IMG/VR virus record: IMGVR_UViG_3300017544_000005 | Location: 1-38,657 of that record | Reading direction: 5' to 3' (one strand) | From: a virus | Lineage: Duplodnaviria; Caudoviricetes | DNA: 38,657 nt | In this document: one piece after another, positions 14,800 to 38,402 of the stretch | Layout: every line of letters starts with the position of its first letter | Numbering within the stretch: the first letter of the stretch is position 1 | The notes under the pieces: generated by a model | What the model saw: the letters and a program-made list of their open reading frames with translations, nothing else | What the model was told of the DNA's origin: nothing | Databases searched by the model: none | Program-made: the position numbers and the translations under genes

Positions 14800-15390
14800 C
14801 TATGCCGCCAAGCGCCAAGCTCTGCGGACTTCTGTTCGTTTCTGTCCGTCAGGATGGCGCTCGACGCTCGGTCCATCATCATGATCCACGAGCGAGCGCA
14901 CCGGATAAATCACTGGCCTGCGCATGACTTGCTGCCAAGCATTTCCGATGGCGAAATCTGCTGCGCCGCTTGCCGGTATCTTCGACAGCACCGCCTCGAC
15001 CTTGCCCGCCGGGATCGTGTAGCAAACGCCATGAATAAGCTGGGGTAGCGTGATGCATTCCTCCCTCCACTGGTCAGCACGGCGGAGCAAATTGGCGATT
15101 TGCGTCTGGTATTGCGGCGGCCTGCCGGTGCCTAGGTAAAACGACAGCAAGTCATCTGGGCATTCATCCATCCAGCCTTGCGCCAAATTGCCAAAATCCG
15201 CCACAGGAAGCGCATCGTCCTCCATAATGACGCAACGCTCGCTCTGGACAGAACACCACTCCAGCGCCTTCCTATGGCCATGCAGCGCGCCATTCCCGAT
15301 CTCGTCCATGACAATATGCGCGTTCAGGCTTCTAGCGAGACGTTCGGCTTGGTCTCTGCGCTTGTAATGTGCCACGATGACGATCTTCAT
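14800..15390 (-). CDS. Glycosyltransferase, GT-A fold (GT25-like)
   Basis: G...GH..AL, VIMEDDA (DxD-type motif), HGVCY, D..IG, PSLVDH-like motif (RSLVDHDD). Confidence 0.72.
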   Translation of the reverse strand: MKIVIVAHYKRRDQAERLARSLNAHIVMDEIGNGALHGHRKALEWCSVQSERCVIMEDDALPVADFGNLAQGWMDECPDDLLSFYLGTGRPPQYQTQIANLLRRADQWREECITLPQLIHGVCYTIPAGKVEAVLSKIPASGAADFAIGNAWQQVMRRPVIYPVRSLVDHDDGPSVERHPDGQKRTEVRRAWRLAA

Positions 15391-24013: not shown

Positions 24014-24089
24014 TGGTGCCCTAGCGAGGGATCGAACCCCGGACCATCCGCTTACAAGGCGGCTGCTCTACCATCTGAGCTACACGGGC
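24014..24089 (-). tRNA. tRNA-Thr(UGU), atypical (mismatched acceptor stem)
   Basis: 76 nt GCCCGTGTAGCTCAGATGGTAGAGC...CTTGTAA...GTTCGATC...CTAGGGC-A-CCA. Mismatches at 5:68 (G.A), 6:67 (T.T) and 27:43 (G.A). Confidence 0.8.
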
Positions 24090-24092
24090 AAT

Positions 24093-24147
24093 TGGTTGAC
24101 CTGCGACCGCAAAGGCGATCTCGCGGGCCAAGCCCTGGAACAGGTCG
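24093..24147 (-). ncRNA. 55 nt tRNA-like mini element ending in ACCA
   Basis: CGACCTG...CAGGTCA-A-CCA acceptor-like helix enclosing two hairpins; separated by 2-3 nt spacers from the tRNAs on each side. Confidence 0.45.
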
Positions 24148-24149
24148 AT

Positions 24150-24226
24150 TGGTTGCGGCAGGTCGGATTCGAACCGACGATCTTCTGGTTATGAGCCAGA
24201 CGAGATGACCACTTCTCCACTCCGCA
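24150..24226 (-). tRNA. tRNA-Met(CAU), initiator-like, with a 1 nt bulge in the acceptor stem
   Basis: TGCGGAGTGGAGAAGTGGTCATCTCGTCTGG-CTCATAA-CCAGAAGATCGTCGGTTCGAATCCGAC-CTGCCGCA-ACCA. The A11:U24 pair and overall sequence resemble tRNA-fMet. Confidence 0.82.
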
Positions 24227-24843: not shown

Positions 24844-25749
24844 TTAGGCCGCAGATTTTTTCAATGCGGCCACAAGATTATCATTTGCCGCTATCAGCCG
24901 CCTTTTGCCTTGCCGCTCTTTTGTGCGCTGATGGCCACTCACCCCGATATCTGCCAGACTGCCCGCATCCATCGCAGCGTCCAGAACGTCCCGATCCCTG
25001 TCCTTCAACTCTTGAAGCGCTTCAAACCAAAGGTCGCGATCGATCATCGCAGACAGTGTATCTTCCCAAGATTCATCTCCTCCTCCAGCACACGTCGTCT
25101 TTCGCATACCGAGGAAACTATCGGCCACCTTGGGTGAGCCACACGGCAATCCTTTTGGATATCGCGTGAAAGTAACCTTCTCCATGTCGGTGTTTGCGTA
25201 GGCATCTGCGAGAATTCGGGCGGATTCCTCAGCGCTGTAATCCGTACCATTTCGGCGCTTTCCGGATGGAATATATCGATGCGGCAGTGTTCCAAGCATA
25301 TCTTTAAAATAGTGATTGCTGGCCTTGGTATCCTTCGGATCAGCTCCACCACCCGACGCACGGTCGGGTTTATCTTTCATGCCGAGCATTGCGCCCGCTG
25401 GCATGCGAATGTCTGCCTGTATAACTTCGCCGTCGATGCCAAGTACGTACCCGACCTCAGTTTGATTGCCATCGCTGAACCGCAGCTTGCCTATGCGGAC
25501 AATCTGTCCTTTCCCGTTCTTCTCGATATCGCCGGTTGCAACGTTTTGCATGATGGCTTGCACGGACGGTGTCTGTCGCCAGTCCCGCTCATAACGCATG
25601 TCGGCGACCTCCTCGGGGTCATTGTCATTCAAACCAGGCGCAACAGACCAATTCGTCTGCAATGGTTCTCGCTGGCCTTCTGGGCGATTGCGATACGCCA
25701 TAAGCGATTTCAACTGTTCTGCGAGTGATACGTGTCTTGTATTCTTCAT
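24844..25749 (-). CDS. Putative late-transcription regulator (C-terminal sigma region 4-like segment); ssrA-like C-terminus
   Basis: Last gene before the late region (the Q position). C-terminal ALQELKDRDRDVL...SLADIG resembles a degenerate HTH. ATGA coupling to VRR-NUC. Function is inferred from position. Confidence 0.45.
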   Translation of the reverse strand: MKNTRHVSLAEQLKSLMAYRNRPEGQREPLQTNWSVAPGLNDNDPEEVADMRYERDWRQTPSVQAIMQNVATGDIEKNGKGQIVRIGKLRFSDGNQTEVGYVLGIDGEVIQADIRMPAGAMLGMKDKPDRASGGGADPKDTKASNHYFKDMLGTLPHRYIPSGKRRNGTDYSAEESARILADAYANTDMEKVTFTRYPKGLPCGSPKVADSFLGMRKTTCAGGGDESWEDTLSAMIDRDLWFEALQELKDRDRDVLDAAMDAGSLADIGVSGHQRTKERQGKRRLIAANDNLVAALKKSAA

Positions 25750-26249
25750 GCTGCCTTCCCCTTCTCTTGTGCAAGCCACTCCAGAACCGCCGTAACGGCC
25801 TGCTCAGCGGCTTCTGTCGTGGTTGTGGCCCGAATGACCAGTACAGTGAAGCCAAGCCTCTCAAGCGCTGAGTGGCGGTCTTTTTGGGCTGGTGACAGTC
25901 GTCCCTGCCCGACCTTGTTCTCGATCAACAGCAACCGACCGTTTTCGGCATAGATGCGGAGGTCAGGTTCGCCACTGGTCATTCCCGTCGCAATTGCCTG
26001 AGCCTGAGCCCTTGGACCACGCTTGCTGGCGTTCATGTCTCCCGCCAGCAGGAACTGACGCTGGTACTGTGGCAGGCGACGCAGGCTGGCGACTTGTGCC
26101 GCCTGCAATTCCCATTCGAGCGGCAGGGCCGGCTTTGTCGTCACCTTCCCGGCCTTGGTAGTGATCTTGACGCGGGCGCCGTTGATGCGGACGGTTTGTG
26201 TTTTGGTGGCGGTTGTAGACGAAGGCGCGCGCGTGCGGTTGCGTGCCAT
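25746..26249 (-). CDS. VRR-NUC domain nuclease (resolvase-like)
   Basis: E.ELQ, GMTSGEPDL, LIENKVGQGRLSPAQ...H..L..LGF.V.V. Confidence 0.88.
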   Translation of the reverse strand: MARNRTRAPSSTTATKTQTVRINGARVKITTKAGKVTTKPALPLEWELQAAQVASLRRLPQYQRQFLLAGDMNASKRGPRAQAQAIATGMTSGEPDLRIYAENGRLLLIENKVGQGRLSPAQKDRHSALERLGFTVLVIRATTTTEAAEQAVTAVLEWLAQEKGKAA

Positions 26250-26399
26250 GTTAGCTCCTCGTGTTGATTGCGGTATGCCGTTGGTGGCGGCGTGAATCGG
26301 GACGGTGGCCCGATAGAAAGATGGAATGAGTCTCGAACGAATGTGTCAAGCGGAAAGTGGATGGCCGTCAGACAATGCGATTGTGCGCGCCTCGGTAAA

Positions 26400-26700
26400 T
26401 GTGGTGTTAATGGACAGGCAGAAAATGAGATGCCGAAAAACGGCGGTCGCATTAATTGTCCATTCTGCAACCCCTTTATATACAGACCCCATGAATCTAT
26501 ATAAAAAGGTACCTATTATATAATACGTGGATGAATGGATTTTATTATATATATAGAGATCAATCCATTGATTTCATTCATCTTTTTTACCTGATTTTTA
26601 TCCATCCAGAACCGATTAAAATCCGGGACAGAATTCGCTGATCGAATTTAATCCATGGACAGAATTGCTGCGGTGGATGGTTTTTAATCGGCCTATCAAA
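26400..26700. other. Putative replication origin (AT-rich core plus repeats)
   Basis: Very AT-rich stretch 26470-26620, direct repeats at 26620-26640 and 26650-26670, many TCCAT/ATGGA motifs; adjacent to the primase-helicase gene. Confidence 0.55.
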
Positions 26701-26727
26701 AACAACAAAACGGGGCCGAAGCCCCGT
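26697..26727 (-). terminator. Intrinsic terminator after the primase gene
   Basis: ACGGGGC-TTCG-GCCCCGT followed by TTTGTTGTTTTT. Confidence 0.85.
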
Positions 26728-26731
26728 CGTG

Positions 26732-29095
26732 TTAGTCCATCCAGACAAGCCGATTTGCCGGTCGCCCCCGCTTGGATTTCGCCTCCTGTTTTATCACCTT
26801 CCCAGTGTGAAAGAGTTCCTTCAATATCTCTTCCCGGCGGCGCCCCTCGATTGCTTTGCAACGATCGAACAAACGGCTTTCCGTGATGCCTTTGGTGCCT
26901 GCCTTGCGGATCAACCCCACAATGCGCTTGTAGTTTGCCTCACGATCATTGTCGGCCAATCGCTCTGTCACTTCGGCGATCATCGTAGCCGCGCACGTCC
27001 AGGCTACACATGAAGCCCACTCGAAATCTGTTTCAGTTATGACCGGTTCCGTCGGGTCCTTCCCAACCGCAACGATCAGCGCAAGTTTTATCGCGTTTTC
27101 AATGATGCGTCGTGCAAACGGTCGAGCCTCTGACGCCAGCAGCTTTTCTCGAGCGTCAATCGAATCCTTGACCGACCTGAAAAGAGTGGTCGCATCTGGT
27201 GTCCATTGAACGATGTACGGCTTGTTTTCTCCATACGCCGACACTTGAATATTCATCCCAGACAGATTGCCACGCTTCGCAGCCACGTTAATGCCAGCTA
27301 CCGATGCCATACGCTCCATCAGAAGATACGGCACCTCGCGAACATCACGGGACGGCTTTACGGCGTCAGGCTTATCGCCTGTGACATAGAATAGGATAAG
27401 GCGTGGCAGCAAGCCATCCTCGGCGCTTGCGCTACTGAGGGCGGCCCAGAATTGCTCTGGTGTTGAAGTGCCGTGAATGCATAGCGTGGGGTTATAAATT
27501 CTCTTCGGAGGAACACCGCGATAGGCCGCACCTTCGAAGAATGTTGACGACGCCGAGTAATAGTCTCGCAGATCCGTCGAAATTGCCCGTTGATGACTAC
27601 CTGCCTTTCGGTCTGTGATATCGCGTATGAAGCCACCGAACTCATCGATCTGGCAATTGACCGACGGATGTTTCTCCAACACCTCGCGCAATGCCGACGC
27701 CGACATTATGCGCGCAGGGCCGCTATAAGCATCGAATATGCCTTGATCTGCCATGAGTATACGCTTGATCTGCGATCGGGCGTGCTCCTTACCGAAGCCT
27801 GATTCAGCAAGTGCAACAGTGTACAGGTTTGGTCGTGTATCGCGAGAACCCGTCGAATATCTGGCACCAGCCAACGATGCCAGCAATGGCAACACAGCAG
27901 CCATGGCAAGCGTGCGTGATGGCTGTTCCGCGCTCGATACGATCCAGTCAATCATGTCTTCAACCAACCCACCCGGGTAGGTCAGGCTTTCCAGATCGGC
28001 GACAGCCTCCAGTTTGTATTCTGGAACATCATCATCGTCGGTCTCTGGAACCACTTCGTCTGCATCTACCGGATGGTCGCTATCAGCTACATCGTCGTCA
28101 TGACGATTGCGATATTTCTCAATAAGGCCGGTCACGCTCACCGGTGGGGTGCTGTCATCATCGTAGAATGACCGTTCAGGAATTTGTCGTGGTTGGCGCA
28201 CGCCAGCAGACAAACCGTTTTCGATCGTCTTGCAGCACTTAACCCAGTCCCGGCCCCACCCCCGCGCAACATCCTGCAACAATTGACGTGCCTCGTGTTC
28301 TGGCAAAGCGCCAGCACCGACAAGCGTACCAAGAGAAAATGCCGCTGCGTTTAAACGATTGTTGCGCCCAGCACCCATAGGCACAGACGCGGTTTCTTCT
28401 AGCTCCAGTTGAATCGCACGGTCGATATAGGCGTCGTTACCCCCGCGATCATAGGTGTAATCCGTACCGGTCGATGTAGGCGCCTTTGGCAAAACGAGGT
28501 CCAGAAGCCATTGCGGGGCGTCAGCCAACGGCGGTAGCCCAGGGCCAGAATAGTCGACCCATTTGTAAGTGCGGCCGTCTTCCATCATGCTCCCGGGAGC
28601 GACGACGTACCCACCCGATCCACGAACATCCAGCCCAGCGCCAAGTCGACCCCGATTGCGAACGCCAGGTACATATTTGAAATAACGATGCTCTCCACCG
28701 CCCGCAGTACGGGCTGTGGCTGTTTTGGGGAGTGGTCCGAACTTATCTTCAAGGACGGCTAGCGTCTCGAACCCGTCGATAATCTCGCCGTTCTCGTCCT
28801 TGTGCACATCGACGTCGAGCACCCATGCGCCCAATTGTTCGCCGGTCGGGATGCCAACCATTGCGCCGGGGTTACGGTCCCAAAGAATATTCGTCACGCG
28901 GAGGTTTTTTGTGGCGCCCTTGAAGCCATTGCTCAAAAGAGGTGTTTTGGCTTTCAGAACAACAATTTCGCCGGTTTCTTCGTCAAATTCGTTGGTTTCC
29001 TCGTCTTTCGCCCGACATGGGAAAACCGGGATATCGGCAGCGATATAAGCAAGCGCGAGGTCGCGTGACGGATCAGATGCAATAGTCATGTTCAT
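26732..29095 (-). CDS. Bifunctional primase-polymerase (Prim-Pol) fused to a DUF3987-like helicase domain
   Basis: PVFPC, GFKGAT, VLDVD, TAGGGEHRYF, DVRGSGGYVVAPGS, GRNNRLN; C-terminal AESGFGKE P-loop, IDEFG, DGLLPR. Confidence 0.9.
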   Translation of the reverse strand: MNMTIASDPSRDLALAYIAADIPVFPCRAKDEETNEFDEETGEIVVLKAKTPLLSNGFKGATKNLRVTNILWDRNPGAMVGIPTGEQLGAWVLDVDVHKDENGEIIDGFETLAVLEDKFGPLPKTATARTAGGGEHRYFKYVPGVRNRGRLGAGLDVRGSGGYVVAPGSMMEDGRTYKWVDYSGPGLPPLADAPQWLLDLVLPKAPTSTGTDYTYDRGGNDAYIDRAIQLELEETASVPMGAGRNNRLNAAAFSLGTLVGAGALPEHEARQLLQDVARGWGRDWVKCCKTIENGLSAGVRQPRQIPERSFYDDDSTPPVSVTGLIEKYRNRHDDDVADSDHPVDADEVVPETDDDDVPEYKLEAVADLESLTYPGGLVEDMIDWIVSSAEQPSRTLAMAAVLPLLASLAGARYSTGSRDTRPNLYTVALAESGFGKEHARSQIKRILMADQGIFDAYSGPARIMSASALREVLEKHPSVNCQIDEFGGFIRDITDRKAGSHQRAISTDLRDYYSASSTFFEGAAYRGVPPKRIYNPTLCIHGTSTPEQFWAALSSASAEDGLLPRLILFYVTGDKPDAVKPSRDVREVPYLLMERMASVAGINVAAKRGNLSGMNIQVSAYGENKPYIVQWTPDATTLFRSVKDSIDAREKLLASEARPFARRIIENAIKLALIVAVGKDPTEPVITETDFEWASCVAWTCAATMIAEVTERLADNDREANYKRIVGLIRKAGTKGITESRLFDRCKAIEGRRREEILKELFHTGKVIKQEAKSKRGRPANRLVWMD

Positions 29096-29655
29096 GCTGC
29101 CCTCTTCTGTTCGGCTTTGCGACGCGCGCGATCAAGCGCGCGGATGACGACCTGCGATGTGTTCGGTTCGTCAACCGTCCATTGCGCGACGCTGCCGGCC
29201 TTTCGCCATGCGTCCGTTACGAACGCCAAATCTCCAACCGTGAGCGCGTCCTGCATGTCATCAAACGAGTATTCTGCCCTGCGTGGTCGAACAGTGTGGA
29301 TACCGATTGGCAAAACTGCGCCCTGCATTTCGATGGGCGCCATGCCAAGTAAAAGAACCTGGTACTTTGATGCGTGGGCCAGTGCTTTATTGTATGGGGC
29401 CAGCGCATCGTTATCGTTGCCACCTCTATTTACAGTGTCAATGTAGGTCGCCAGATCGACCGGCTTGACCTCGACCAGAACAGTTGTCAGGGACGTTCTC
29501 AGCAAGAAATCTGGCGCCCATCCTTCAAGGTCGAATGGTTCGTAATCCCATTTCAACCCGACGAGATCGAAAAATGCGGCCCAACGGGCTTCGGTGCGTG
29601 AACGAAAGTGAACGCCAGCGTATTCTGTAGGGATGGCTTTAATAGTATATTCCAT
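29092..29655 (-). CDS. PD-(D/E)XK-like nuclease-fold protein
   Basis: FRSRTEARWAAFFD...WDYEP...PDF...VEVKP. Confidence 0.7.
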   Translation of the reverse strand: MEYTIKAIPTEYAGVHFRSRTEARWAAFFDLVGLKWDYEPFDLEGWAPDFLLRTSLTTVLVEVKPVDLATYIDTVNRGGNDNDALAPYNKALAHASKYQVLLLGMAPIEMQGAVLPIGIHTVRPRRAEYSFDDMQDALTVGDLAFVTDAWRKAGSVAQWTVDEPNTSQVVIRALDRARRKAEQKRAA

Positions 29656-29680
29656 CAATCTTCCTTATTGGAGCCTGGAG

Positions 29681-29869
29681 ATGTCCAAAGGACGGTATGA
29701 AATGAAGAGAATGAGCAACGGCAAATGGTCGGTCGTCGATACCGAAACCGACCACGTGGCCAAGCTGCAAGATTCCTATTTAAGAGACCTCGATATCGAT
29801 GAGGCCGAGGCGGCGACGGCACTAATGAACCGAATTCATGCCGCAGGTCTAAACGTCACGCCGCAGTGA
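29681..29869 (+). CDS. Small opposite-strand hypothetical protein (62 aa)
   Basis: GGAG RBS before ATG 29681; MSKGRYEMKRMSNGKWSVVDTET... Its 3' end overlaps the MTase 3' end. Confidence 0.55.
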   Translation: MSKGRYEMKRMSNGKWSVVDTETDHVAKLQDSYLRDLDIDEAEAATALMNRIHAAGLNVTPQ

Positions 29870-30843
29870 TTGTCGTTGGCGGCCATAATCTCTGTTGCTA
29901 GGAAAGCTTCGATGAAGGCCTGCGCTGCGGGCGCAACGATTGCATTGCCGTAACCGCGCAATCGTCCCACTCGGGCGGCAATCCCATGAGCCAGCGGGAA
30001 TGTGCCGGGTTCAACTGGCCGCCACTTTCCATCCCGGCAGAAGAGCCAGTCAGCATCTCGCCAGTGGCCGTTAGTCGGGCTGGGCCCGCGATGGCCGCGA
30101 AGTCCTGCAATCTCTGCTGGTTCTTCGTGCCGTCCTCCCTTTTCATAATCACCGGGCGCGCTTCCCGGTCGTTGCTGCAACTCGGGGTGGGCCAGGCCGC
30201 CTGGTGCGCCATCATCGGAAGCGTCATGCCGCCCACGCCCTTTGTTCGTGAACTCGATGTGCTCTCTCTCAGGTGCCTGGCATTTCGAGCTTGCTTCGTT
30301 TCCCAAGTCTCGTTCATTGTGTCGACAGTTCGCGGTGTTGCCCAATGTGCCAACCCAGTAGAGCCGCTGTCGGATATGCGGCGCGCCGAAGCCCGCAGCG
30401 CAGGTATCGACCGCCCCAAAGGCGTATCCCGTAGCTTCCATGTCAGCTTGTACAAGGTCGAGCCAAGCAAGGCCGTCTTTGCTCGCAACCTGCTCGCCAG
30501 CGACGACTGCAGGTTGGCACTGCTCGATAAGATAATGGAAGTGCGGCCAGAGGTGCCGCTCGTCATCAAACCCTGCTCCTTTGCCTGCCGCGCTGAAAGG
30601 CTGGCAAGGGCACGATCCTGTCCATATGGGCGCTTCGTCTGGCCACCCCGCTCTTCTGAGGGCGTGAGACCAGACGCCAATGCCGGCGAAGAAATGGCAC
30701 TGGCTGTAGCCGGCAAGGTCGGAGGGTCGAACATCGACAATTGATCGTTCATCAACTTCTCCTGGTGCAATGTGGCCGGCCTTGATGAGTTCGCGCAGCC
30801 AAGCCGCTGCCTTCGGGTCAAACTCGTTGTAGTAAGCTGACAT
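29836..30843 (-). CDS. C5-cytosine DNA methyltransferase, alpha subunit
   Basis: Start MSAYYNE (ATG 30843, GAGG RBS). Motif I FFAGIG, IV GSCPCQPFS, VI EQV, VIII PHIRQRLY, X LRGYGNAIV. Motif IX is not evident. Confidence 0.9.
   Translation of the reverse strand: MSAYYNEFDPKAAAWLRELIKAGHIAPGEVDERSIVDVRPSDLAGYSQCHFFAGIGVWSHALRRAGWPDEAPIWTGSCPCQPFSAAGKGAGFDDERHLWPHFHYLIEQCQPAVVAGEQVASKDGLAWLDLVQADMEATGYAFGAVDTCAAGFGAPHIRQRLYWVGTLGNTANCRHNERDLGNEASSKCQAPEREHIEFTNKGRGRHDASDDGAPGGLAHPELQQRPGSAPGDYEKGGRHEEPAEIAGLRGHRGPSPTNGHWRDADWLFCRDGKWRPVEPGTFPLAHGIAARVGRLRGYGNAIVAPAAQAFIEAFLATEIMAANDNHCGVTFRPAA
29898..30752 (-). CDS. Nested beta subunit of the C5-MTase (alternative frame, M.EcoHK31I-like)
   Basis: Open frame inside the alpha gene with its own AGGAG RBS before ATG 30752; WATP/WPTP repeats and GQLNPAHSRWLMGLPPEW (motif IX-like). 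Confidence 0.75.
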   Translation of the reverse strand: MNDQLSMFDPPTLPATASAISSPALASGLTPSEERGGQTKRPYGQDRALASLSARQAKEQGLMTSGTSGRTSIILSSSANLQSSLASRLRAKTALLGSTLYKLTWKLRDTPLGRSIPALRASARRISDSGSTGLAHWATPRTVDTMNETWETKQARNARHLRESTSSSRTKGVGGMTLPMMAHQAAWPTPSCSNDREARPVIMKREDGTKNQQRLQDFAAIAGPARLTATGEMLTGSSAGMESGGQLNPAHSRWLMGLPPEWDDCAVTAMQSLRPQRRPSSKLS

Positions 30844-30850
30844 GGCCGCC

Positions 30851-31168
30851 TCAGAATGGAGCTTCATTAAGGGCCGCACGCATCCCTCGCCCGCAGCCGG
30901 TCCATGCGGCTTTGACCAACATGCGCGCTTCGAGCTCGTCCATGTCCTTAAGGTCGGTCTTTCCCAACTCTTGAAGGTATGAACCAACCGCCTCGACGCC
31001 AGTATCAAGGGCGCGCAGTTCGTAAGGATCGAGCCTTTTACGATGCCGAATATGCTCGGCAATGTCGGCACATTCCTTGCACAGCCAGCGGATAGGTTCG
31101 CGGTCTGCTTGCACGCCGAGGCCGGTGGCGTGTCTCTGGCAAACAGCACACACATCGTCAGGCTGCAT
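30851..31168 (-). CDS. Small Zn-finger hypothetical protein
   Basis: ATG 31168 with GGAG RBS; CAVC...CKEC; ends in EAPF. Confidence 0.7.
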   Translation of the reverse strand: MQPDDVCAVCQRHATGLGVQADREPIRWLCKECADIAEHIRHRKRLDPYELRALDTGVEAVGSYLQELGKTDLKDMDELEARMLVKAAWTGCGRGMRAALNEAPF

Positions 31169-32195
31169 TTGCAATCTCCGCGTTGTTGTCGTTGGCCACG
31201 TCGAAGATGTTGTCTTGACGGTGATCAAGCGCCGCAATGTTCCGCACAGCCTGCGAAAAGTAGGACGGCTTTAGCTCGAACCCGATACCCTTACGCCCAG
31301 CAGCAACTGCGCCGTAAACCTCGCTGCCGATGCCCAAAAACGGTGTCAGAACGACGTCGCCGGGATTGCTCCACAGTTCGATGCAGCGCTCGATAACATC
31401 CAACTGCAAAGGCGAAATGTGCTGCTCGTCTTTCTCGTCGCGCGCCGATCGATATTGCAGGGTGCGTGTCTGGTTAATGTCCATCCAGACCGGCGATGCA
31501 TAACGCTGCCAGACTTCAATCGAGAACCATTTCTCGGCCCGTGCACGATCTTCGCCAGATGCCAGCCGATCCGCTAGTGCCGTAGGTTCGTTGCCATAAC
31601 CGACATAACGGTCGAACATGCCATCAACCGGGTCAGGATTATCGCCCGGCTTGCGGAACATCAGCATATAGTCTGCAAGGCCTTGCCCGCTAATGGTGCT
31701 GTCTTTGGTGATCTGCTTATGCAGAAGGCGAATGGATTTCGTGCGCTGCTGCGCGACAACTGGATCTTTCCAGATGCAAACTTCACTATGGAATATCCAT
31801 CCTGCATCCTCGTACGCACGAACGACCTCGCCGCGGAAGTCGCGCATGCCGATATGGCCATGTCTGATCTTGCTGGTTGGCAACTGCATACAATGCACTG
31901 CGTGGATTCTGCCCTGCATGGTCACGCGTAGCAATTCTTGGATCAGGTAGGCGTAGTGCTCCCAGAACCCATCGCCATCGTTGTTGCTGATGTCGCGATC
32001 GGAATTGCTGAACCGATAAAGCCCCTCGAAAGGCGGGCTATGGATGCCGAAATGCACCGTTCCCGTCGGTACTCCACGAATGAGCTCGCAAGCGTCGCCT
32101 TCATAGATGGCGTAATTTTCAGTGACGACTTGGCTGACGGCTTTCACCGCAGCGGTTTTCGTTTCGATAGATTGCTCGGTAAGTCTCTTGCTCAT
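31158..32195 (-). CDS. DNA amino-methyltransferase (N4-C/N6-A, beta class)
   Basis: Motif IV SPPF precedes motif I TPFLGIGSE; HISPLQLDVIERCI.LWSNPGD.V, GFELKPSYF. Confidence 0.9.
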   Translation of the reverse strand: MSKRLTEQSIETKTAAVKAVSQVVTENYAIYEGDACELIRGVPTGTVHFGIHSPPFEGLYRFSNSDRDISNNDGDGFWEHYAYLIQELLRVTMQGRIHAVHCMQLPTSKIRHGHIGMRDFRGEVVRAYEDAGWIFHSEVCIWKDPVVAQQRTKSIRLLHKQITKDSTISGQGLADYMLMFRKPGDNPDPVDGMFDRYVGYGNEPTALADRLASGEDRARAEKWFSIEVWQRYASPVWMDINQTRTLQYRSARDEKDEQHISPLQLDVIERCIELWSNPGDVVLTPFLGIGSEVYGAVAAGRKGIGFELKPSYFSQAVRNIAALDHRQDNIFDVANDNNAEIANAA

Positions 32196-32214
32196 GAAAT
32201 TCTCCTCGTGTCGG

Positions 32215-33615
32215 TCAGTGGGCTACGGCGTTGGTGGTGAGCCACGCCGGTATCTGCATAGGCTGTTGCGGGTTATAGTTCGGCTTGTCGCGCACAGCGC
32301 CACGAACCGCCTCGCTGGATAGGTCCGCCATGTGCATGACCATCGCAGCTGCCATACGTTCGGCATCGGCTTCCTTGCGCCGGAGATTGGCAACAATCGC
32401 GCCTTCGGTTTCTGCCGCGATGAAATGAACGTTGACTGGCTTCGTCTGGCCGAAACGCCAGAACCGCCGAACTGCTTGGAATATCTGCTCGAAGCTGTCG
32501 TTAAGACCGACGAAGCCGGTATCAGCGCAGTGCTGGAAGTTGAGGCCAAAGCCACAGATCGAAGGCTTGGACACTAACACTCGCGCCTTGCCGGATAGGA
32601 AGTCAGCAATCTTGCATTCCTTGTCGTCGTCCTTGTCCGATCCAGACAAGTTGATAGCGCCCGGTATAACCTTTGCAAGTGCATCAGCCTCGCTATTGAG
32701 ATTGCACCACCATACAAATGGCCTGTCATTTGGCGTCAGACGGGCAGCAAGCGCGACGCGTTCGCCTACGCTGTCTTTCCTCGCCGAAATGCGTTCCTGC
32801 ATCGTACGGGCTTCCATAGGGAAAAGTAGCCCTGTCTCGACGCTCGGCGCATATTCCACCTGCACCGTATGCTGGTCATATGTCAGCGGCGGCAGATCGT
32901 ATCCGGTGTTGTCATAACCAAGATCGGAAGGCTTGCGCAGCATCACAGACCATGACGCCATCCACTTCCAAAACTCGGTTTCAGCATGGCCTTTCAGACG
33001 CCATTTCTGTGTCTCGCCGCCATCGTGGATGAAGAACGTGGCCAGCATGTCGGTATATGACATGACGCCGAGAAACTCCGCGTGGTTGCCAAGCTCCATG
33101 AAATCATTCGGCGCTGGCGTAGCAGTTGCAGCCAGACGAAACGGGATTGCCGCGCATTCTTCAATCAGTCGATTGCGATACTTTCCGTCTGTGGACTTTA
33201 GGATTGAGCTTTCATCGATCACAACGCCACCAAATTCTTCTAGCGAGAAATGATCCATCTTCTGGTAATTTGTGACGTTGATGCCCTGCCCAACGTCCGA
33301 CTGCGATGCAACAATACGCGCCGGGATGCCAAACTTCGCGGCCTCGCGGATATGCTGTGCTGCAACTGCCAGCGGTGCGAATATCAGCGCTGGCTTGCCG
33401 GTATAGTCCGAGACATGCTCGGCCCACGTCAGTTCCATAAGCGTCTTGCCTAGCCCCGTGCCAGCGAATATGGCAGCGCGCCCACGACGCAAAGCCCACC
33501 GCACGATATCACGCTGATGTGGCTTTAGCGTCTGGCTTAGTTCTGGAATGTCAGTCATTCCCGTAGCGGGATCGGCAATAGCCTTCCCGTGCAGGAAACG
33601 CGCGTAGGCGTCCAT
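32215..33615 (-). CDS. SNF2-like (SF2) helicase/ATPase paired with the MTase
   Basis: GTGLGKT, IDESSILK, ATATPAPND, GFGLNFQ, QAVRRFWRFGQ. Start 33615 fits the GAGGAG spacing. Confidence 0.88.
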   Translation of the reverse strand: MDAYARFLHGKAIADPATGMTDIPELSQTLKPHQRDIVRWALRRGRAAIFAGTGLGKTLMELTWAEHVSDYTGKPALIFAPLAVAAQHIREAAKFGIPARIVASQSDVGQGINVTNYQKMDHFSLEEFGGVVIDESSILKSTDGKYRNRLIEECAAIPFRLAATATPAPNDFMELGNHAEFLGVMSYTDMLATFFIHDGGETQKWRLKGHAETEFWKWMASWSVMLRKPSDLGYDNTGYDLPPLTYDQHTVQVEYAPSVETGLLFPMEARTMQERISARKDSVGERVALAARLTPNDRPFVWWCNLNSEADALAKVIPGAINLSGSDKDDDKECKIADFLSGKARVLVSKPSICGFGLNFQHCADTGFVGLNDSFEQIFQAVRRFWRFGQTKPVNVHFIAAETEGAIVANLRRKEADAERMAAAMVMHMADLSSEAVRGAVRDKPNYNPQQPMQIPAWLTTNAVAH

Positions 33616-33674
33616 CCTCATCTCCTCGTGTTTCGTGGTGGTAACCCGCCAGTTGGTGGCTGGCGGGGTGTTGA

Positions 33675-33833
33675 TTATAGGCTGGATGCGCCGCCTTGCT
33701 GCACGGCAGCAATCGGGCGGACTAGGTCGGGAAACCAGTCGTCGTAGGTGGCGACGTCGATCATTGCCTCTTCCAATGAGTACATGTCATTGATGTACGC
33801 GTCATAGTCTGGCTCGTATTCGTGCGGAGCCAT
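33675..33833 (-). CDS. Small acidic protein (52 aa), not in the ORF track
   Basis: Manual translation: MAPHEYEPDYDAYINDMYSLEEAMIDVATYDDWFPDLVRPIAAVQQGGASSL. It fills the gap in the operon; the RBS is weak. Confidence 0.5.
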   Translation of the reverse strand: MAPHEYEPDYDAYINDMYSLEEAMIDVATYDDWFPDLVRPIAAVQQGGASSL

Positions 33834-33847
33834 TAGCCACTCGTAGC

Positions 33848-34030
33848 TCACAACAACTTCTCCATACAGACGCGAATAACCCCGCGCAGTTCATAGAAGT
33901 TGCGTGCTTCGTCGATGGCATTCAGAAGGTACTCGCGGTCCACTTGTTTCCTTGCCTCGTCCAGCCCCAACCCTTGCTCCCGCAAGCGTTTGATGCGCGG
34001 CACATAATCCGCGGGGTCTAGCTTCGCCAT
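33848..34030 (-). CDS. Small hypothetical protein
   Basis: TGATG coupling to the Gp157 gene; 60 aa, predicted helical. Confidence 0.65.
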   Translation of the reverse strand: MAKLDPADYVPRIKRLREQGLGLDEARKQVDREYLLNAIDEARNFYELRGVIRVCMEKLL

Positions 34031-34563
34031 CACGCCACCCTCACCGTAACACTCGGCTGCCCTTCGCGGAGCACCGCGCCCGGTACATCTTCGCCAGCAT
34101 CCAGCACGGCCTTAATCGCCGTCTTATCCGGCTCACGCTTTAGCTTCACGACGTTATCTGGCAGTAGGCTTTCATCCACTATCTCAACCCCTGCGCGTCC
34201 TTTGCCGACGGACACAGTCGCCTCCGGCAGGCTCACTTTTGTGAGGTCGGCGGCCTTCAACAGACGCAGTAACAAGGCCCGCATTGCGTCCTTGCGTCTG
34301 GCGTATCGTTCTTTTCGCGCAGCCAATTCCTTGGCGCGTTCGCCGATGGCCAGTACCATGCTGTTTGCGTCGCGCTCGATGGCCACGATCTTACCGAGCA
34401 CGCGGTAGGCGTCCGTCTCGCCTTCGATTGTGTCGGCGCGCAGTTCGTCGTCTTCTGCCAGTTCGGGGTATGCCGCAACCAAGTCGGCGAATTCCCGTTC
34501 CAGAACGGTGACATCATAGGCCAGATAGTTCTGTGCTTTCGCATTGTCAGCTTTGTTTTGCAT
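34030..34563 (-). CDS. Siphovirus Gp157-family protein
   Basis: DTIEGET, coiled coil, I.DESLLP, EPDKTAIK..L.AGEDVPGA.L. Confidence 0.85.
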   Translation of the reverse strand: MQNKADNAKAQNYLAYDVTVLEREFADLVAAYPELAEDDELRADTIEGETDAYRVLGKIVAIERDANSMVLAIGERAKELAARKERYARRKDAMRALLLRLLKAADLTKVSLPEATVSVGKGRAGVEIVDESLLPDNVVKLKREPDKTAIKAVLDAGEDVPGAVLREGQPSVTVRVA

Positions 34564-34653
34564 AATTGCTCCTCGTGTCGGTGGTTGGTATTGCTGCGAT
34601 AAGCAGCGGTAGGTAAGTTAACACGCCTCGCGGCGTATCCCGTTAACGGGTTG

Positions 34654-37452
34654 TCAAAATGGTATGTCGTCTGCCAGTATTTCTGCTAGTCCAGCGGACA
34701 TGGGCTCATTGTCATTACCAGCCCCCGTCACGTTGTCATTCGCAGCACCCGGCATGGCGTCGACCACTTCCCAGTATTTGCCGTTGGGCTTCACGATGAT
34801 TTCACCCGTAGGCAGCAATTCGTTCTGGCGCTCCATAAATTCCAGCACGGTTTTGGGGAACGGGGCCTGACCGCCGTGCTTTCGCCACCACCTGTCTGAC
34901 TTCGACTTAAAGAAGCCGGTATGAGCCGGGCCTAGCCATTCATTGATCGGCGACATGCCAACCCAGTAAGACACCTTCACGCTGTCCTGCTTGCCGCCCT
35001 TGCCTTCGTGGTATGCGAATGTGCGGCGTGTAACTTCCCGCGTCTCGGGCACGGCAACGCTCACAATCGGCGCGTCAGTTGCGTGGCTTTGCAGCTTCGG
35101 CGTTTCATCGAATTCATATTCATGGCCGCAACACCAGCAAATGCGCAATGAAGCATGCAGTTGCTCGTTGCAGGTCGGGCAGATCTTGATCGGGGCTTGA
35201 CCGTCGCCTTTTGTCGGTTTGCGTGGCTCGATCATATCGACCGGGCCGTGCTCTGCGACGTTGCCCGCAAAATCCATGTAACGACAGTTTGGCTTCAGGT
35301 ATCCAGCGATAGCCCCTCGGCGTTCTGCCGGCCCGACCGCTTCGGGATCAAACCGCGGCGGGTAAAGCACGCGAGTTCCGCGTCCGACGCGCTGCACATA
35401 ACGGCTTGCCGACTTGGTGCGCGCCATATCTACGATGAGGTCAATGCGCGGCACATTAGTGCCGGTAGACATGACGTTATCGTTGGTGATGCCCCATATC
35501 TCCCCCGCCTTGCATGCCTCGATAATCTTCCGACGCTCGTTTTTAGGCGTGCTGCCATGCAACACTTCACATGATTTGCCCATTGAGCGGACCATATCCC
35601 GCACATTCGTAGCGTGCTTAACGCCAGCGCAGAAGAATAGCGCAGTCCTGCGTTGCCCTTCCGTGTCAAAAACCTCTTCAAGAATGCGGCCATTGAGATC
35701 GTCCCGATCAACTGCATTCTGCAATGCGCCCTTCGCAAGATCATTCCCGCGCATCGGAACATGCGAAGTGTCTTGCTTGGTTTCAGTAGGCTTTGACGTA
35801 ACCGGCGAAAGATATCCGTCGTCAATGCCCTGCCGTATGCCGTATGTATAGACGACCTTATCGAACAGTCGGTCGTCGCCCTCATCGAGTCGTCCGCTGT
35901 CAAGGCGATAAGGCGTAGCGGACAATCCAACAATTTTCATATCCGGGTTGATCGACAGCAGCGCGTCGATAAATTGCCGGTACATGGTGTTTGCATCATT
36001 CGGCACTAAGTGAACTTCATCAATTGCCAGCACGTCTACATGGCCGATCTGCGCCGCCTTGTTATAAACCGTCTGTAATTGCGCAAACAAAATTTGCGCC
36101 CGCGCTTCACGGCGGCCAAGGGCAGATGCATAAATACCAGTTGGAGCAAACGGCGCGATACCGATCAGCTCGAGAAAGTTGCCCTCGACCAGTTCCACGA
36201 CATGAGTGCAGCAGCACAGCCGCATATCAGGCCAGCCGGTAATCAACTCGTGGAATAGCGTAGCGAGAGTCATCGACTTGCCGGTGTTGTGATGCACCAT
36301 GAAATCTTCAGTCAGATAAAGATGATCGCCATCCAGTGCGAACCCGTAGTAGTCGCCAACTCCTATCGGCTCGATATCGAAACCAGTTACAAGCGGATTT
36401 TTGATCTGACGACGAGGCTGCGCCTTCTGACGCGCAACTCTATTTGGAATCATATCAGTGTCGCCAGAAATAGAGACGCGCCAATATTGCCCTCCGCCGC
36501 CAGTCTGGCAGTATTTCATGCAAGGCGTAATATATGCTGCGAGCCCCAGGCTGCGCGCGACAAACGCTACATCGCGTGACAGATTTTCCGACTTCGATAT
36601 GAAGTCGAAATGATTATTCTTTGACAGGTGGCCGTCAGTATCCAGTAAGCCAGCAAGCACGTTTAAGCGAGTTTCACGGCTGCCCGTTTTATACATATGC
36701 GGGATGCTTTTCTGGTCGCAGACCATCCCCCAAATGCCAGCGGCCTCCAGATGCGCAACTAGTCGATTCCTAACGCTACGGCTGGCGTCATCATCAGGGA
36801 AAAATACTTGCCATGCCCTATTCCCAACCTTCTGCGTGACGCGGGGCTTTAGCCCGATGGATTCCACGTAGTCGCAAACCTCATCGAGGACTTCAGGGTC
36901 CATGTTAGTTATGCCGACACTATGTACGAGGCTTCCATCGCCAAGCATTGCCCCCACTATATAGGCGGGCACTGGAAGGTTATCATTCGCGACATAGTCG
37001 AAATCAATGCCAGTTCGCCACAGTTTACGAATGTGCTTCCAATATTTTGCCTTCGATAGGTATTCTTTTACAGTGACATTTTCGACCGTTCCTGCCGATT
37101 TATAAGAATTGGGATATCGTGCGGCTTTTTTGCCTTCATTGGTCGTCTTCAGACTTAGTATGTGATTTTCATTGACGACAAACGGATCGCCCTTAACCGG
37201 CGTGATGCGATACATCATTTCGCGACCGGATACGGTGCGTAACACTCGCCTCGGCTTACTATCGGGACCCATAAGATTATCGTTGACCGCCACGAGTTCG
37301 ACGGGCTTCGTGGTGCCATCATACATCAGAATAGGCGTGCCAGCGGCATGGCATCCAGTCGCCATGTCCAGCAGAGGATGCCCTGCCTCGGCTTTCCAAT
37401 AATCGAAAACGGCATCCACCGCCTCGCGCTGATAGTATCGCAATGCCATCAT
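34654..37452 (-). CDS. SF2 DEAD/DEAH helicase (RadD/YejH-like) with an intein and Zn finger
   Basis: LRYYQ.EAV, Walker A ATG|TGKS split by the intein, IDEVH, GLSATPYR, YVQRVGRG.R, CPTC...CWCC; C-terminal DDIPF. Confidence 0.92.
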   Translation of the reverse strand: MMALRYYQREAVDAVFDYWKAEAGHPLLDMATGCHAAGTPILMYDGTTKPVELVAVNDNLMGPDSKPRRVLRTVSGREMMYRITPVKGDPFVVNENHILSLKTTNEGKKAARYPNSYKSAGTVENVTVKEYLSKAKYWKHIRKLWRTGIDFDYVANDNLPVPAYIVGAMLGDGSLVHSVGITNMDPEVLDEVCDYVESIGLKPRVTQKVGNRAWQVFFPDDDASRSVRNRLVAHLEAAGIWGMVCDQKSIPHMYKTGSRETRLNVLAGLLDTDGHLSKNNHFDFISKSENLSRDVAFVARSLGLAAYITPCMKYCQTGGGGQYWRVSISGDTDMIPNRVARQKAQPRRQIKNPLVTGFDIEPIGVGDYYGFALDGDHLYLTEDFMVHHNTGKSMTLATLFHELITGWPDMRLCCCTHVVELVEGNFLELIGIAPFAPTGIYASALGRREARAQILFAQLQTVYNKAAQIGHVDVLAIDEVHLVPNDANTMYRQFIDALLSINPDMKIVGLSATPYRLDSGRLDEGDDRLFDKVVYTYGIRQGIDDGYLSPVTSKPTETKQDTSHVPMRGNDLAKGALQNAVDRDDLNGRILEEVFDTEGQRRTALFFCAGVKHATNVRDMVRSMGKSCEVLHGSTPKNERRKIIEACKAGEIWGITNDNVMSTGTNVPRIDLIVDMARTKSASRYVQRVGRGTRVLYPPRFDPEAVGPAERRGAIAGYLKPNCRYMDFAGNVAEHGPVDMIEPRKPTKGDGQAPIKICPTCNEQLHASLRICWCCGHEYEFDETPKLQSHATDAPIVSVAVPETREVTRRTFAYHEGKGGKQDSVKVSYWVGMSPINEWLGPAHTGFFKSKSDRWWRKHGGQAPFPKTVLEFMERQNELLPTGEIIVKPNGKYWEVVDAMPGAANDNVTGAGNDNEPMSAGLAEILADDIPF
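36286..37353 (-). mobile_element. Intein with a LAGLIDADG homing endonuclease (356 aa)
   Basis: Begins CHAAGTPILMYDG, block B VNENHIL, LAGLIDADG motifs GAMLGDGS and LAGLLDTDG, block F YYGFALDGDHLY, ends VHHN followed by Thr at +1. Confidence 0.95.
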
Positions 37453-38402
37453 GCTACCTGTTTGTTGTTGGGCTTGTTGTCGTTGGCCCCATCCACCCAA
37501 ATCTCACCCGTCGCCAAACGATAGGTAACCGTCTCCGCGACCTCATCGGCATCGATCTGCTCGCCATTTATCAGCCCACAAAGGTAGAGATGCGCCGGGC
37601 ACCCGTCGCGTTGCTCGTCGATCGACAAAGGCTTGTTCCAGCGCGCGCATGACATGTGGCAGTCGCCGCCATGCTCAGGCTGAACGTGGAGGCAGGTGCG
37701 GCAGTTCACACGCGGCTGCACTCCTTCGTGGCAGACACCACGATGTTTGCAGAACATGCATCCGAAGAACTCCGGGTCTTCGCTGATCCGGCTGGGTGGC
37801 TCGTCCGAAAACACGATGCGTTCGCAGCGTGCCAGCAGTCGAAGGCAGAACTCGACATCGTATTCGATGCGCTCGGCATAAAGCGTGTCGGTGTTCTTGC
37901 ACGACGCCAGATACAGGCAGCGCGTCAGGCCGAAAGCCTGCATCCCGAGTTGGCACTGGGCGTAGTGCAAAGGTTTGGCCTTCTGGCAGCCGTGCTTCTG
38001 AAGTTCCTTGATGCCCTTCTCGTTGCTCGACTTGAATTCCAGCAGGTGTTCGGTCTTCGGCGCTTCGGGTACGCCCATTGCCTTGCCGTCGCACTTGCCA
38101 CGGACGAACCCAGAAACCAGCCTGATTTTGTCCTGTTGTCCATAGACATCAACGCCGATGCGTTCGAGGTCGGCAACGAGGCGGTCTTCCTCGATATTGC
38201 CGGTGGCGAACAGTCGAAGCTGGCGACCCGAATGAACCTCGTGCGCTGAGACCCAGCGGAAGCCGTACCAAAGGGCTCGATCACATTCCGTGCCCGCCTC
38301 GCCCACGCTGATGCCCCACGAGTCCCAGGACTTAGCCTGGGCCTCGTAAGCAGCGTAGATGGCGCGGACGGTGCTGGATTCGGCTTTTGGGAGGGCGGCC
38401 AT
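37449..38402 (-). CDS. Cas4-like PD-(D/E)XK exonuclease (probable Fe-S cluster)
   Basis: ECDRALWY, GKCDG, LEFKS, HYAQCQLGM, CMFC..RGVC, plus NCRTC; start ATG 38402. Confidence 0.85.
   Translation of the reverse strand: MAALPKAESSTVRAIYAAYEAQAKSWDSWGISVGEAGTECDRALWYGFRWVSAHEVHSGRQLRLFATGNIEEDRLVADLERIGVDVYGQQDKIRLVSGFVRGKCDGKAMGVPEAPKTEHLLEFKSSNEKGIKELQKHGCQKAKPLHYAQCQLGMQAFGLTRCLYLASCKNTDTLYAERIEYDVEFCLRLLARCERIVFSDEPPSRISEDPEFFGCMFCKHRGVCHEGVQPRVNCRTCLHVQPEHGGDCHMSCARWNKPLSIDEQRDGCPAHLYLCGLINGEQIDADEVAETVTYRLATGEIWVDGANDNKPNNKQVA

Follow-up and report, generated by a model that had tools for sequence, protein, structure and literature searches.

The window, the whole 38,657-nucleotide stretch of viral DNA analyzed here, is a partial 16-3-like Ochrobactrum/Brucella prophage whose integrase region lies outside it. 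It shares with Rhizobium phage 16-3 both a Cas4-helicase-primase arm and a siphovirus module, which places it among the 16-3-like temperate phages; its Cas4 is 70% identical to that of phage 16-3, and a Brucella pseudintermedia prophage encodes a near-identical one (98%). Reading all six frames, we found six ANDN and two GNDN peptides, every one of them in frame with a minus-strand gene of the 24.8-37.5 kb arm. Five proteins that handle DNA or are putative regulators, unrelated to one another, contain ANDN, and four copies precede an AA or VA end. These four are the C-termini of the 301-aa phrog_36072 protein, a putative sigma-region-4 late regulator (AANDN-x8-AA at 24844-24891, minus strand; AANDNLVAALKKSAA and stop), a C5 cytosine methyltransferase (AANDN-x8-AA at 29836-29883, minus strand; AANDNHCGVTFRPAA and stop), an N6/N4 methyltransferase (ANDN-x6-AA at 31158-31196, minus strand; ANDNNAEIANAA and stop) and a Cas4-domain exonuclease adjoining the helicase start (ANDN-x6-VA at 37449-37487, minus strand; ANDNKPNNKQVA and stop), giving the protein ends SAA, PAA, NAA and QVA. 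The helicase carries AANDN and GNDN in its tail (34654-34746, minus strand) and VANDN inside its intein (36979-36993, minus strand); the protein ends DDIPF, without AA, which we take to resemble the C-terminal tip of SSB. A 187-aa phrog_21138 protein ending KRAA contains an internal GGNDN (29410-29424, minus strand), and comparison with homologues places a second, degenerate site in the regulator, GLNDND, at about residues 39-44 (approximately 25618-25635, minus strand).

The first-pass annotation had given the positions and peptides of the four tails and the helicase tail and had noted the intein site, all of which hold, together with labels for the two methyltransferases, Cas4 and the helicase that our searches confirm; it overlooked the GNDN at about 29421. 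Its label of late regulator is weakly backed, with 4 of 77 homologues showing Sigma70_r4 (best E 0.0014), a Foldseek match to sigma region 4 at E 1.1 and nothing at E<=0.001 in fold searches. The near-identical architecture it saw in four unrelated genes is real. We expected 0.129 ANDN copies in the window and observed 6; across 5000 within-protein shuffles the count reached 3 at most, and the C-terminal architecture appeared in none, versus 4 observed. An unbiased tetrapeptide scan of the window proteome returned ANDN as the most enriched. The peptides are in-frame parts of long genes, not products of trans-translation, and copying of tmRNA DNA is ruled out, because a search of the window found no tmRNA and the spacers do not match tag-coding sequence.

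The motif is the head of the degradation tag of the host group. As had been stated for alphaproteobacteria, the tmRNA tags of the host group begin with ANDN in five of five cases, and the phage peptides carry the same AANDN head; the host tag is likely ANDNKAQGYALAA. The tag head is the part bound by the adaptor SspB-alpha. SspB is encoded in four of four hosts and in 24 of the 25 genus genomes scored, and a search of phage 16-3 for SspB returned none. In E. coli, ClpXP critically requires the terminal Ala-Ala (PMC10862746), and deletion of sspB in Caulobacter slows turnover of an ssrA-tagged protein (PMC9393093). The native Caulobacter tag, given in the latter report as AANDNFAEEFAVAA, has an A-ANDN head, a similar spacing and an Ala-Ala-type end, as in the phage, and works with SspB-alpha and ClpXP, the adaptor being encoded by the phage's hosts too. 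Unlike the native tag, the phage version is written into ordinary genes, mostly with TGA stops, instead of being added by trans-translation; it also occurs internally, N-terminally and doubled, on folded, functional proteins. Its spacer is free, lacking the aromatic and Leu residues of the native tag; the likeness to the host tag holds for the head and not for the spacer. We consider it probable that these putative genome-encoded SspB sites, together with ClpX-type ends, destabilize early phage proteins. A complex model of the SspB dimer with the Cas4 tail scored 0.60 versus 0.11 for the best control, with runs agreeing in at least 52% of contacts and a partner pLDDT of at least 47, and it weakly supports binding of this tail by SspB. 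Among solved pairs 116 of 157 attain the mark applied, and among mismatched pairs 2 of 215 do so, with only 18 of the 157 solved pairs and both mismatched passes lying at or below 0.60; since SspB structures have already been solved (2QAS, 2QAZ, 2NYS), the pass may merely reproduce those known structures.

We next turn to genomes beyond the window. The DNA pattern ANDN-x-[AV]A-stop is matched in 100 of 151 alphaproteobacterial genomes, versus 8 control matches; 93 of the 151 have exactly one match, which reads as the tmRNA tag, and additional copies are grouped in stretches of prophage size. Host genes themselves hardly ever have the full ANDN-to-[AV]A form. In IMG/VR, 106 of 124 ANDN pattern matches are in frame versus 28 of 116 for ADNN, and 55 are protein ends versus 3. 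All 55 come from loci with a GC content of at least 0.5; the 34 in-frame matches at low GC include no protein end. The commonest C-terminal carrier is the portal (18 of 55). Consequently, the observation that no virion protein ends in the motif is true in the window and does not generalize, and a restriction to non-virion proteins is ruled out. ANDE, the host-matched version in other phages, forms the protein end in 21 of 118 matches, and a scan of 16 of these 21 showed portal and Cro-like proteins among them; its in-frame share is no better than chance (45/118, p 0.48), so host-matched ANDE mimics remain a lead.

The codon patterns indicate that selection acts on the peptide and not on the DNA, as the first-pass annotation had argued. 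Among 101 related, redundant loci, ANDN occurs 561 times versus 3-61 times for its 11 permutations and 6, 34 and 5 times for AKDN, ANEN and ANDK. All 32 synonymous 12-mers are found across these loci, third-position transversion neighbors of the 12-mer are depleted, and synonymous divergence is 0.247 in the motif versus 0.237 and 0.229 in its flanks. We found no frame-independent nucleotide conservation of the kind that a DNA repeat or binding site would leave; free synonymous variation, a synonymous rate equal to that of the flanks and the 106 of 124 in-frame matches rule out a DNA motif.

At the same time, ANDN marks module-swap junctions. Two methyltransferase types exchange four different downstream tails at ANDN, the N6/N4 methyltransferase tail is found behind three different upstream clusters, and two ends of the alignments between the window and G001 fall at ANDN sites (37489 and 31193). 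Recombination at the shared 12-mer may thus swap tails between genes, and would spread the motif at least in part. These junctions are what one would expect if the motif were a by-product, the 12-mer serving as a recombination joint and the AA or VA ends being supplied by the overlapping start of the next gene and its ribosome-binding site. Many AA/VA ends do overlap these elements, and tails often contain GGAGG and ATGA/TAATG. Within the tail of the N6/N4 methyltransferase lie both the ATG and the ribosome-binding site of the DUF6511 gene that follows; the C5 methyltransferase tail runs antisense to the last part of a small gene on the plus strand, whose 3' end is at 29869. However, five clade genomes have AA ends on 85 of 427 genes and nine control genomes on 14 of 623, and this enrichment exceeds the effect of coupling: coupled genes end in AA in 60 of 209 clade cases versus only 4 of 342 in controls, and uncoupled clade genes are still enriched (25/218 versus 10/281). 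Translational coupling as the only source of AA ends is ruled out, and there is an excess of AA ends beyond it. Clade genes with ANDN end in AA more often (24/59) than other clade genes (61/368). Across six of eight other integrase-bearing alphaproteobacterial phages, AA ends are already found on 39 of 414 genes, a point against our preferred reading. A by-product accounts for the motif's spread but not for its retention, and it sits poorly with the free synonymous variation, the depleted transversion neighbors and the in-frame bias; we judge it highly unlikely.

Retention and position differ between carriers. Among 66 ANDN copies in the five clade genomes, 28 lie within 22 aa of the protein end, 24 are internal and 5 are N-terminal; of the 28 C-terminal carriers, 14 end in AA and 20 in [AVSTC]A, with Leu rare at position -3. 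The residue preceding ANDN in 85 clade copies is Ala in 48, as in the mature tag, and Pro in 22. The motif is present in 16 of 20 orthologues of the C5 methyltransferase and 8 of 8 of the N6/N4 methyltransferase. The Cas4 tail is an accessory, present in 13 of 100 orthologues and absent from 87, and a search for a PDB sequence match to Cas4 gave none; a Sak4-like protein lacks its tail in 43 of 78 orthologues. The helicase keeps the motif in 77 of 85 orthologues and ends PF, and an SSB-like protein keeps it in 89 of 89, ending WG or SK; these best-retained copies have no AA end, and doubled motifs are frequent in both proteins and in the regulator. The helicase intein has Hint and LAGLIDADG domains, and the L016 intein also carries an ANDN site. 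ANDN copies were also seen on an ISKra4 transposase and on the portal of a second prophage.

These distributions bear on a decoy function, by which abundant carriers such as the SSB-like protein would occupy SspB and slow host quality control or shield phage products, degradation being secondary. The well-retained, often doubled copies without AA and the 24 of 66 internal copies would suit a titrating role, yet a single small decoy gene would be enough for it, as many as 14-19 genes carry the motif, methyltransferases and the portal among them, and AA ends are enriched among ANDN genes, making titration as the primary function distinctly unlikely. The regulator raises a different question. Of 120 homologues, 111 have [AG]NDN no more than 22 aa from the end, 87 carry two ANDN copies and 62 end in AA, and A288, N289 and N291 are invariant across 77 aligned homologues; in its model (pTM 0.30) the C-terminal ANDN lies in the middle of a predicted helix, residues 274-300, and the N-terminal second site lies in a segment with pLDDT<50. 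An invariant, predicted helical site could mean that ANDN binds another host protein (ClpA, Lon or a non-proteolytic partner), or is structural in some carriers, the likeness to the tag being partly incidental; several proteases read tags, according to PMC8138137. But in most carriers ANDN sits in linkers or tails that are rich in Pro and Ala and belong to unrelated folds, and the predicted fit to SspB, though weak, also speaks against this explanation, which we regard as very improbable.

The trait is confined to the 16-3 clade. Phages 16-3, RHph_TM3_3_14B, NV1.1.1 and RHph_X2_25 share with the window the Cas4/helicase/primase module and the ANDN enrichment; the window differs from them in being partial and in belonging to Ochrobactrum/Brucella. 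ANDN-rich proteomes make up 6 of the 22 in our panel and track this clade, not host or lifestyle. A general trait of temperate alphaproteobacterial phages was first hinted at (3 of 5 with integrase) and then ruled out by the wider proteome comparison, in which eight other integrase-bearing phages have 0-2 ANDN copies each. Host SspB alone therefore cannot account for the distribution, and confinement to one clade leaves room for a phage-encoded reader of ANDN. The best candidate is p073 (from phage 16-3 and outside the window), which all five complete clade genomes and 82 of the 101 loci encode and which none of the other panel phages has; second is a beta-clamp homologue, also in 5 of 5 clade genomes. 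The p073 family has a small barrel and, besides an acidic linker, a conserved NV(I/V)xVDF motif resembling the SspB tail, a combination that suggests a possible phage adaptor or inhibitor of ClpX; one member reads EVINLDEYR, to be compared with the near-invariant VVSLDAFRK at the end of host SspB. The p073 model is a five-stranded barrel with a disordered tail. Among the Foldseek matches listed, the top query TM-score belongs to the Lon specificity factor 5YCQ (0.49, E 0.023); NusG KOW, PWWP and Tudor domains rank equally, none of those listed reaches E<=0.001 and SspB is absent from them, so that the barrel is generic. An Atlas look-up gave only clusters without names. Searches of Pfam and of PDB sequences gave no match, and hhalign against SspB found no sequence similarity (probability 1%); on these Pfam, hhalign and Foldseek results p073 is ruled out as an SspB homologue. 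A phage reader would also leave unexplained the identity of the motif with the host tag head and the copies on the ISKra4 transposase and second-prophage portal, and we consider it unlikely.

We return to degradation through host SspB, which we favor. Many unrelated proteins contain the head (A/P)ANDN, often placed so that a small-residue end such as AA or VA follows 8-15 residues later. ANDN would likely bind SspB, which would then hand the carriers to ClpXP and make them short-lived; weaker ends (AS, SA, VA) may be strictly adaptor-dependent. The most likely purpose would be clearance of portal left unassembled and of proteins for replication, recombination, methylation and excision that are leaky or spent; a threshold would arise when SspB-ClpXP becomes saturated in the lytic burst. 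Counting against this reading are the Cas4 and Sak4-like tails missing from most orthologues, the best-retained copies without AA, the many copies far from a protein end, the regulator site in a predicted helix with AA on about half of its homologues, and the tails that overlap the start of the next gene.

Parts of this arrangement have precedents. Natural ssrA-like ClpX degrons, as tabulated in PMC8138137, include cleaved RseA (VAA), Caulobacter CtrA (DPNEQVNAA) and MuA (RRKKAI). These ends, which ClpX reads, are genome-encoded as the phage tails are, RseA using SspB and MuA coming from a phage; they differ in being single proteins whose sequences, as listed there, lack the ANDN head, whereas here one motif covers about 8-19% of a proteome. 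The synthetic DAS+4 degrons described in the same paper join an SspB site to a weak end and give SspB-dependent turnover, and many of the putative phage degrons likewise end in AS, SA or VA. Pseudomonas phage pf16 engages the SspB-ClpXP pathway, encoding SspB itself with no ssrA-like element found (PMC5587285); phage 16-3, in contrast, has no SspB of its own and many candidate substrates. The AP-16-3 paper mentions neither ssrA, tmRNA, ANDN nor Clp, and phage ssrA mimics were not described in the literature that we searched.

One phage clade carries, in 5-19 genes per genome, the head of a tag whose complete architecture host genes nearly lack. If SspB reads the motif, this would be genome-scale short-motif mimicry of bacterial protein quality control and a layer of phage regulation unseen by promoter and repressor analysis; hundreds of natural degron variants would also become available for alphaproteobacteria, and 16-3-like prophages could be recognized by the motif in their sequence. 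A broader possibility, which we hold to be doubtful, is a proteome-wide proteolytic program in the 16-3 clade, with a two-part code (SspB site plus graded end), motif-driven recombination and p073 as a ClpX-binding switch; the host tag would then stand in up to a fifth of proteins as a tunable signal, proteolysis would join the lysis-lysogeny circuit and, as the ISKra4 transposase copy hints, further mobile elements might rely on such a device. The classic phage 16-3 and Sinorhizobium meliloti offer a system in which these ideas are testable.

The six-frame translation of the window contains the peptide ANDN (Ala-Asn-Asp-Asn, the head of the host tmRNA tag) six times and GNDN twice; every copy is in frame, on the minus strand, and lies within 24.8-37.5 kb. 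Composition predicts 0.129 copies of ANDN, and the C-terminal architecture (ANDN-x6-8-[AV]A) arose in 0 of 5000 shuffles. The feature is genuine and well beyond chance expectation, and the peptides and coordinates of the first-pass annotation were all correct on re-check. The window (38,657 bases, the whole virus record) contains a siphovirus tail, a head and part of an early arm; the integrase, repressor, Sak4 and SSB region is located past its end. For Cas4, identity reaches 98% with a Brucella (Ochrobactrum) pseudintermedia prophage and 70% with Rhizobium phage 16-3, and we infer the host from these Brucella/Ochrobactrum and Rhizobium phage relatives. High prevalence of 16-3-like prophages in Ochrobactrum has been reported (PMC5492332). 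The window also carries tRNA-Thr(TGT) and tRNA-Met(CAT), flanked by the genes for the putative regulator and HNH (24014-24226, minus strand), and two genes that by eye are glycosyltransferase-like separate the major capsid gene from the head-tail connector (14800-16847, minus strand).

Across 101 related loci (1.72 Mb, a redundant set collected with six seed peptides, one of them including ANDN), there are 561 copies of ANDN versus 3-61 for each of its 11 permutations, and near-variants are few (AKDN 6, ANEN 34, ANDK 5). The 473 distinct contexts include all 32 synonymous 12-mers, and synonymous divergence at the motif (0.247, where the zero non-synonymous rate is by construction) equals that of its flanks (0.237 and 0.229). 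Single-linkage clustering sorts the carriers into 51 clusters, of which some are short or spurious frames. In an IMG/VR sample, ANDN-x-[AV]A-stop matches proved to be in frame in 106 of 124 cases, compared to 28 of 116 when ADNN served as control, and 55 and 3 of these matches, respectively, form the ends of open frames of at least 60 residues; extrapolated totals are about 1100 ANDN, 310 ANDE and 160 ADNN stretches. Among the remaining ANDN matches are many true tmRNA genes carried by viral contigs. Such contigs, with ANDN-headed tags and many of low GC, are numerous (L143-L261). The earlier proposal that selection acts on the peptide, and not on the DNA, is upheld by the synonymous variety, the flank-like synonymous rate and the in-frame share.

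We clustered the DNA on either side of 339 C-terminal copies. Two methyltransferase types are each linked to the same four downstream tails, one tail follows three different upstream clusters, all with the junction at ANDN, and two ends of the window-to-pseudintermedia alignments coincide with ANDN; the 12-mer is thus, judging from these sequences, likely to be a crossover point. A small gene on the opposite strand (29702-29869, plus strand) overlaps the C5-methyltransferase tail with its 3′ end; the gene's stop codon lies directly against ANDN, and different alleles of the gene swap together with that tail.

Terminal Ala-Ala is enriched in the 16-3 clade: it closes 85 of 427 genes in five clade genomes, and nine control phages have it in 14 of 623. 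These and the tetrapeptide proteome counts rest on our own codon-based caller, used without formal validation, which called 99 genes in 16-3 versus 109 annotated CDS (typed in) and 14 ANDN genes versus 16. Because its host label seemed doubtful, phage Yong-M3-232 (OM868076.1; 10 of 78 genes ending AA) was kept out of both groups; it has 63% GC, the 16-3 module and an integrase, and its deposition as a Synechococcus phage may be wrong. Many clade tails overlap the ribosome-binding site and start of the next gene. A by-product of recombination and such coupling is nevertheless a very unlikely source of the motif and its ends: crossover explains how the motif spreads, but not why the peptide is conserved in frame, and AA ends are found in 60 of 209 coupled clade genes but in only 4 of 342 coupled control genes, with uncoupled clade genes still enriched (25/218 versus 10/281). 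Clade genes with ANDN end in AA more often than others (24/59 versus 61/368). Six other temperate alphaproteobacterial phages, two covered to 40 kb only, have AA ends in 39 of 414 genes; therefore, AA is a broader tendency and ANDN is not.

Of 22 proteomes, 6 have ANDN as their most enriched tetrapeptide (the window, the pseudintermedia prophage, 16-3, RHph_TM3_3_14B, NV1.1.1 and RHph_X2_25), and the other 16 contain 0-2 copies. Among 15 further alphaproteobacterial phage records, X2_25 alone is rich (20 matches). Consequently, the trait follows the 16-3 clade; eight of the ANDN-poor records have an integrase. The 55 IMG/VR protein ends belong to portal (18), methyltransferase (9), helicase (3), repair exonuclease (3), exonuclease VIII (2), baseplate wedge (2) and five single families, with 13 unassigned. 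The statement that no virion protein ends with the motif therefore holds within the window but fails beyond it, where portals lead the list and that of 16-3 terminates in ANDNQEDEAEAA. In other phages, some Cro-like repressors and portals end ANDE-x-AA (L268, L282, L296, L337 and L377), possibly a version matched to ANDE-headed tags, with an in-frame share not above chance.

In five host genomes, the tag is ANDNKAQGYALAA in two Brucella species, ANDNNAKEYALAA in Agrobacterium and ANDNYAEARLAA in Rhizobium and Mesorhizobium. The phage mimic keeps only the head, as first proposed, and an Ala-Ala-type end; its spacer is free. The DNA pattern ANDN-x-[AV]A-stop matches 100 of 151 alphaproteobacterial genomes (one unpublished, G045; tmRNA status confirmed for five only), 93 of them exactly once, versus 8 matches for a reversed control; single matches nearly always read as a tag that terminates in LAA or VAA. 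Extra copies in 41 family genomes concentrate in prophage-sized stretches. The pseudintermedia genome (G001) has 25 plain ANDN 12-mers versus 17 controls, 7 of the 25 within 22 kb of the prophage. A second prophage remnant there has portal and exonuclease-like frames ending ANDN-x6-AA (L140:17648 and 19082; C2, about 262-264 kb). The sole large exception to one pattern per genome is an alphaproteobacterial genome with 20 copies of an ISKra4-family transposase; this transposase ends ANDNISPRAAAMAIAA (L134:2245-2295, minus strand, and L135, in G011).

The proposal of hard-wired degrons survives in part, and several results count against its simple form. Methyltransferase tails are mostly kept (amino-methyltransferase 8/8, C5-methyltransferase 16/20), but Cas4 keeps the motif in only 13 of 100 orthologues, and the helicase (77/85) and SSB-like protein (89/89) have no AA end; a Sak4-like protein keeps it in 35 of 78. 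The 66 copies in five genomes divide into 28 no more than 22 residues from the end, 9 at 23-45, 5 N-terminal and 24 internal. Among 120 homologues of the putative regulator, 111 have the C-terminal motif and 87 have two ANDN, with ends AA (62), AS (20), SA (11) and VA (7). The regulator's C-terminal site sits inside a helix in a structure predicted with low overall confidence. The helicase intein (LAGLIDADG, about 36290-37360, minus strand), near the protein's start, is missing from most relatives. We take DDIPF on the helicase (34654-34668) and EAPF on DUF6511 (30851-30865) to be host-like, SSB-tip-like motifs, and QDNIF beside ANDN (31199-31216) to be clamp-motif-like; in relatives, ANDN and AA are separated by QLSLF or QPSLF, and a beta-clamp is encoded by the clade.

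The mechanism we favor, with somewhat better than even confidence, is that SspB, the host adaptor for ClpXP, would bind genome-encoded ANDN sites on phage proteins, and that ClpX-type ends of graded strength would limit the lifetime of early proteins and of free portal. The putative action is like that of the ssrA tag, but the motif is not the ssrA tag. SspB-alpha reads the head residues of the tag, and SspB is present in all 4 hosts examined and in 24 of the 25 genus genomes that were scored. In published work, ssrA-type tags combine an SspB-binding part with a ClpX-bound end, weak ends being adaptor-dependent (PMC8138137), terminal Ala-Ala is needed in Escherichia coli (PMC10862746) and turnover is faster with SspB in Caulobacter (PMC9393093). 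A predicted complex of the SspB dimer with a 34-residue Cas4 tail gives weak support for binding (0.60 versus 0.11 for the best control; contact agreement 52%, partner pLDDT about 48). Similar structures are already solved, and in the calibration a score this low belonged to 18 of the 157 solved pairs and to both mismatched pairs, out of 215, that passed falsely. Titration of the adaptor is an improbable alternative, and another binding partner or a structural role for ANDN is, in our estimate, highly improbable. No description of phage-encoded ssrA-tag mimics was found in the openly available main texts searched, and the AP-16-3 paper's main text contains none of the terms ssrA, tmRNA, ANDN or Clp.

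SspB was sought in phage 16-3 and is absent. A phage-encoded reader of ANDN is unlikely. The small clade-specific protein p073 (93-106 aa; homologue at L020:5592-5891, plus strand, in the pseudintermedia prophage), whose gene is located outside the window, is present in 5 of 5 complete clade genomes, 82 of 101 loci and no other panel phage. Homology comparisons ruled it out as an SspB homologue. Its predicted structure is a five-stranded barrel of generic KOW/Tudor/SH3 fold with an acidic disordered linker, and it has a conserved NV(I/V)xVDF motif; the best query TM-score among the rows listed is to a Lon specificity factor (5YCQ, 0.49, E 0.023). The C-terminal tail of SspB binds ClpX (PMC8138137). 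EVINLDEYR in one p073 member resembles the near-invariant host SspB end VVSLDAFRK, and p073 is, as a lead only, a candidate ClpX adaptor or inhibitor.
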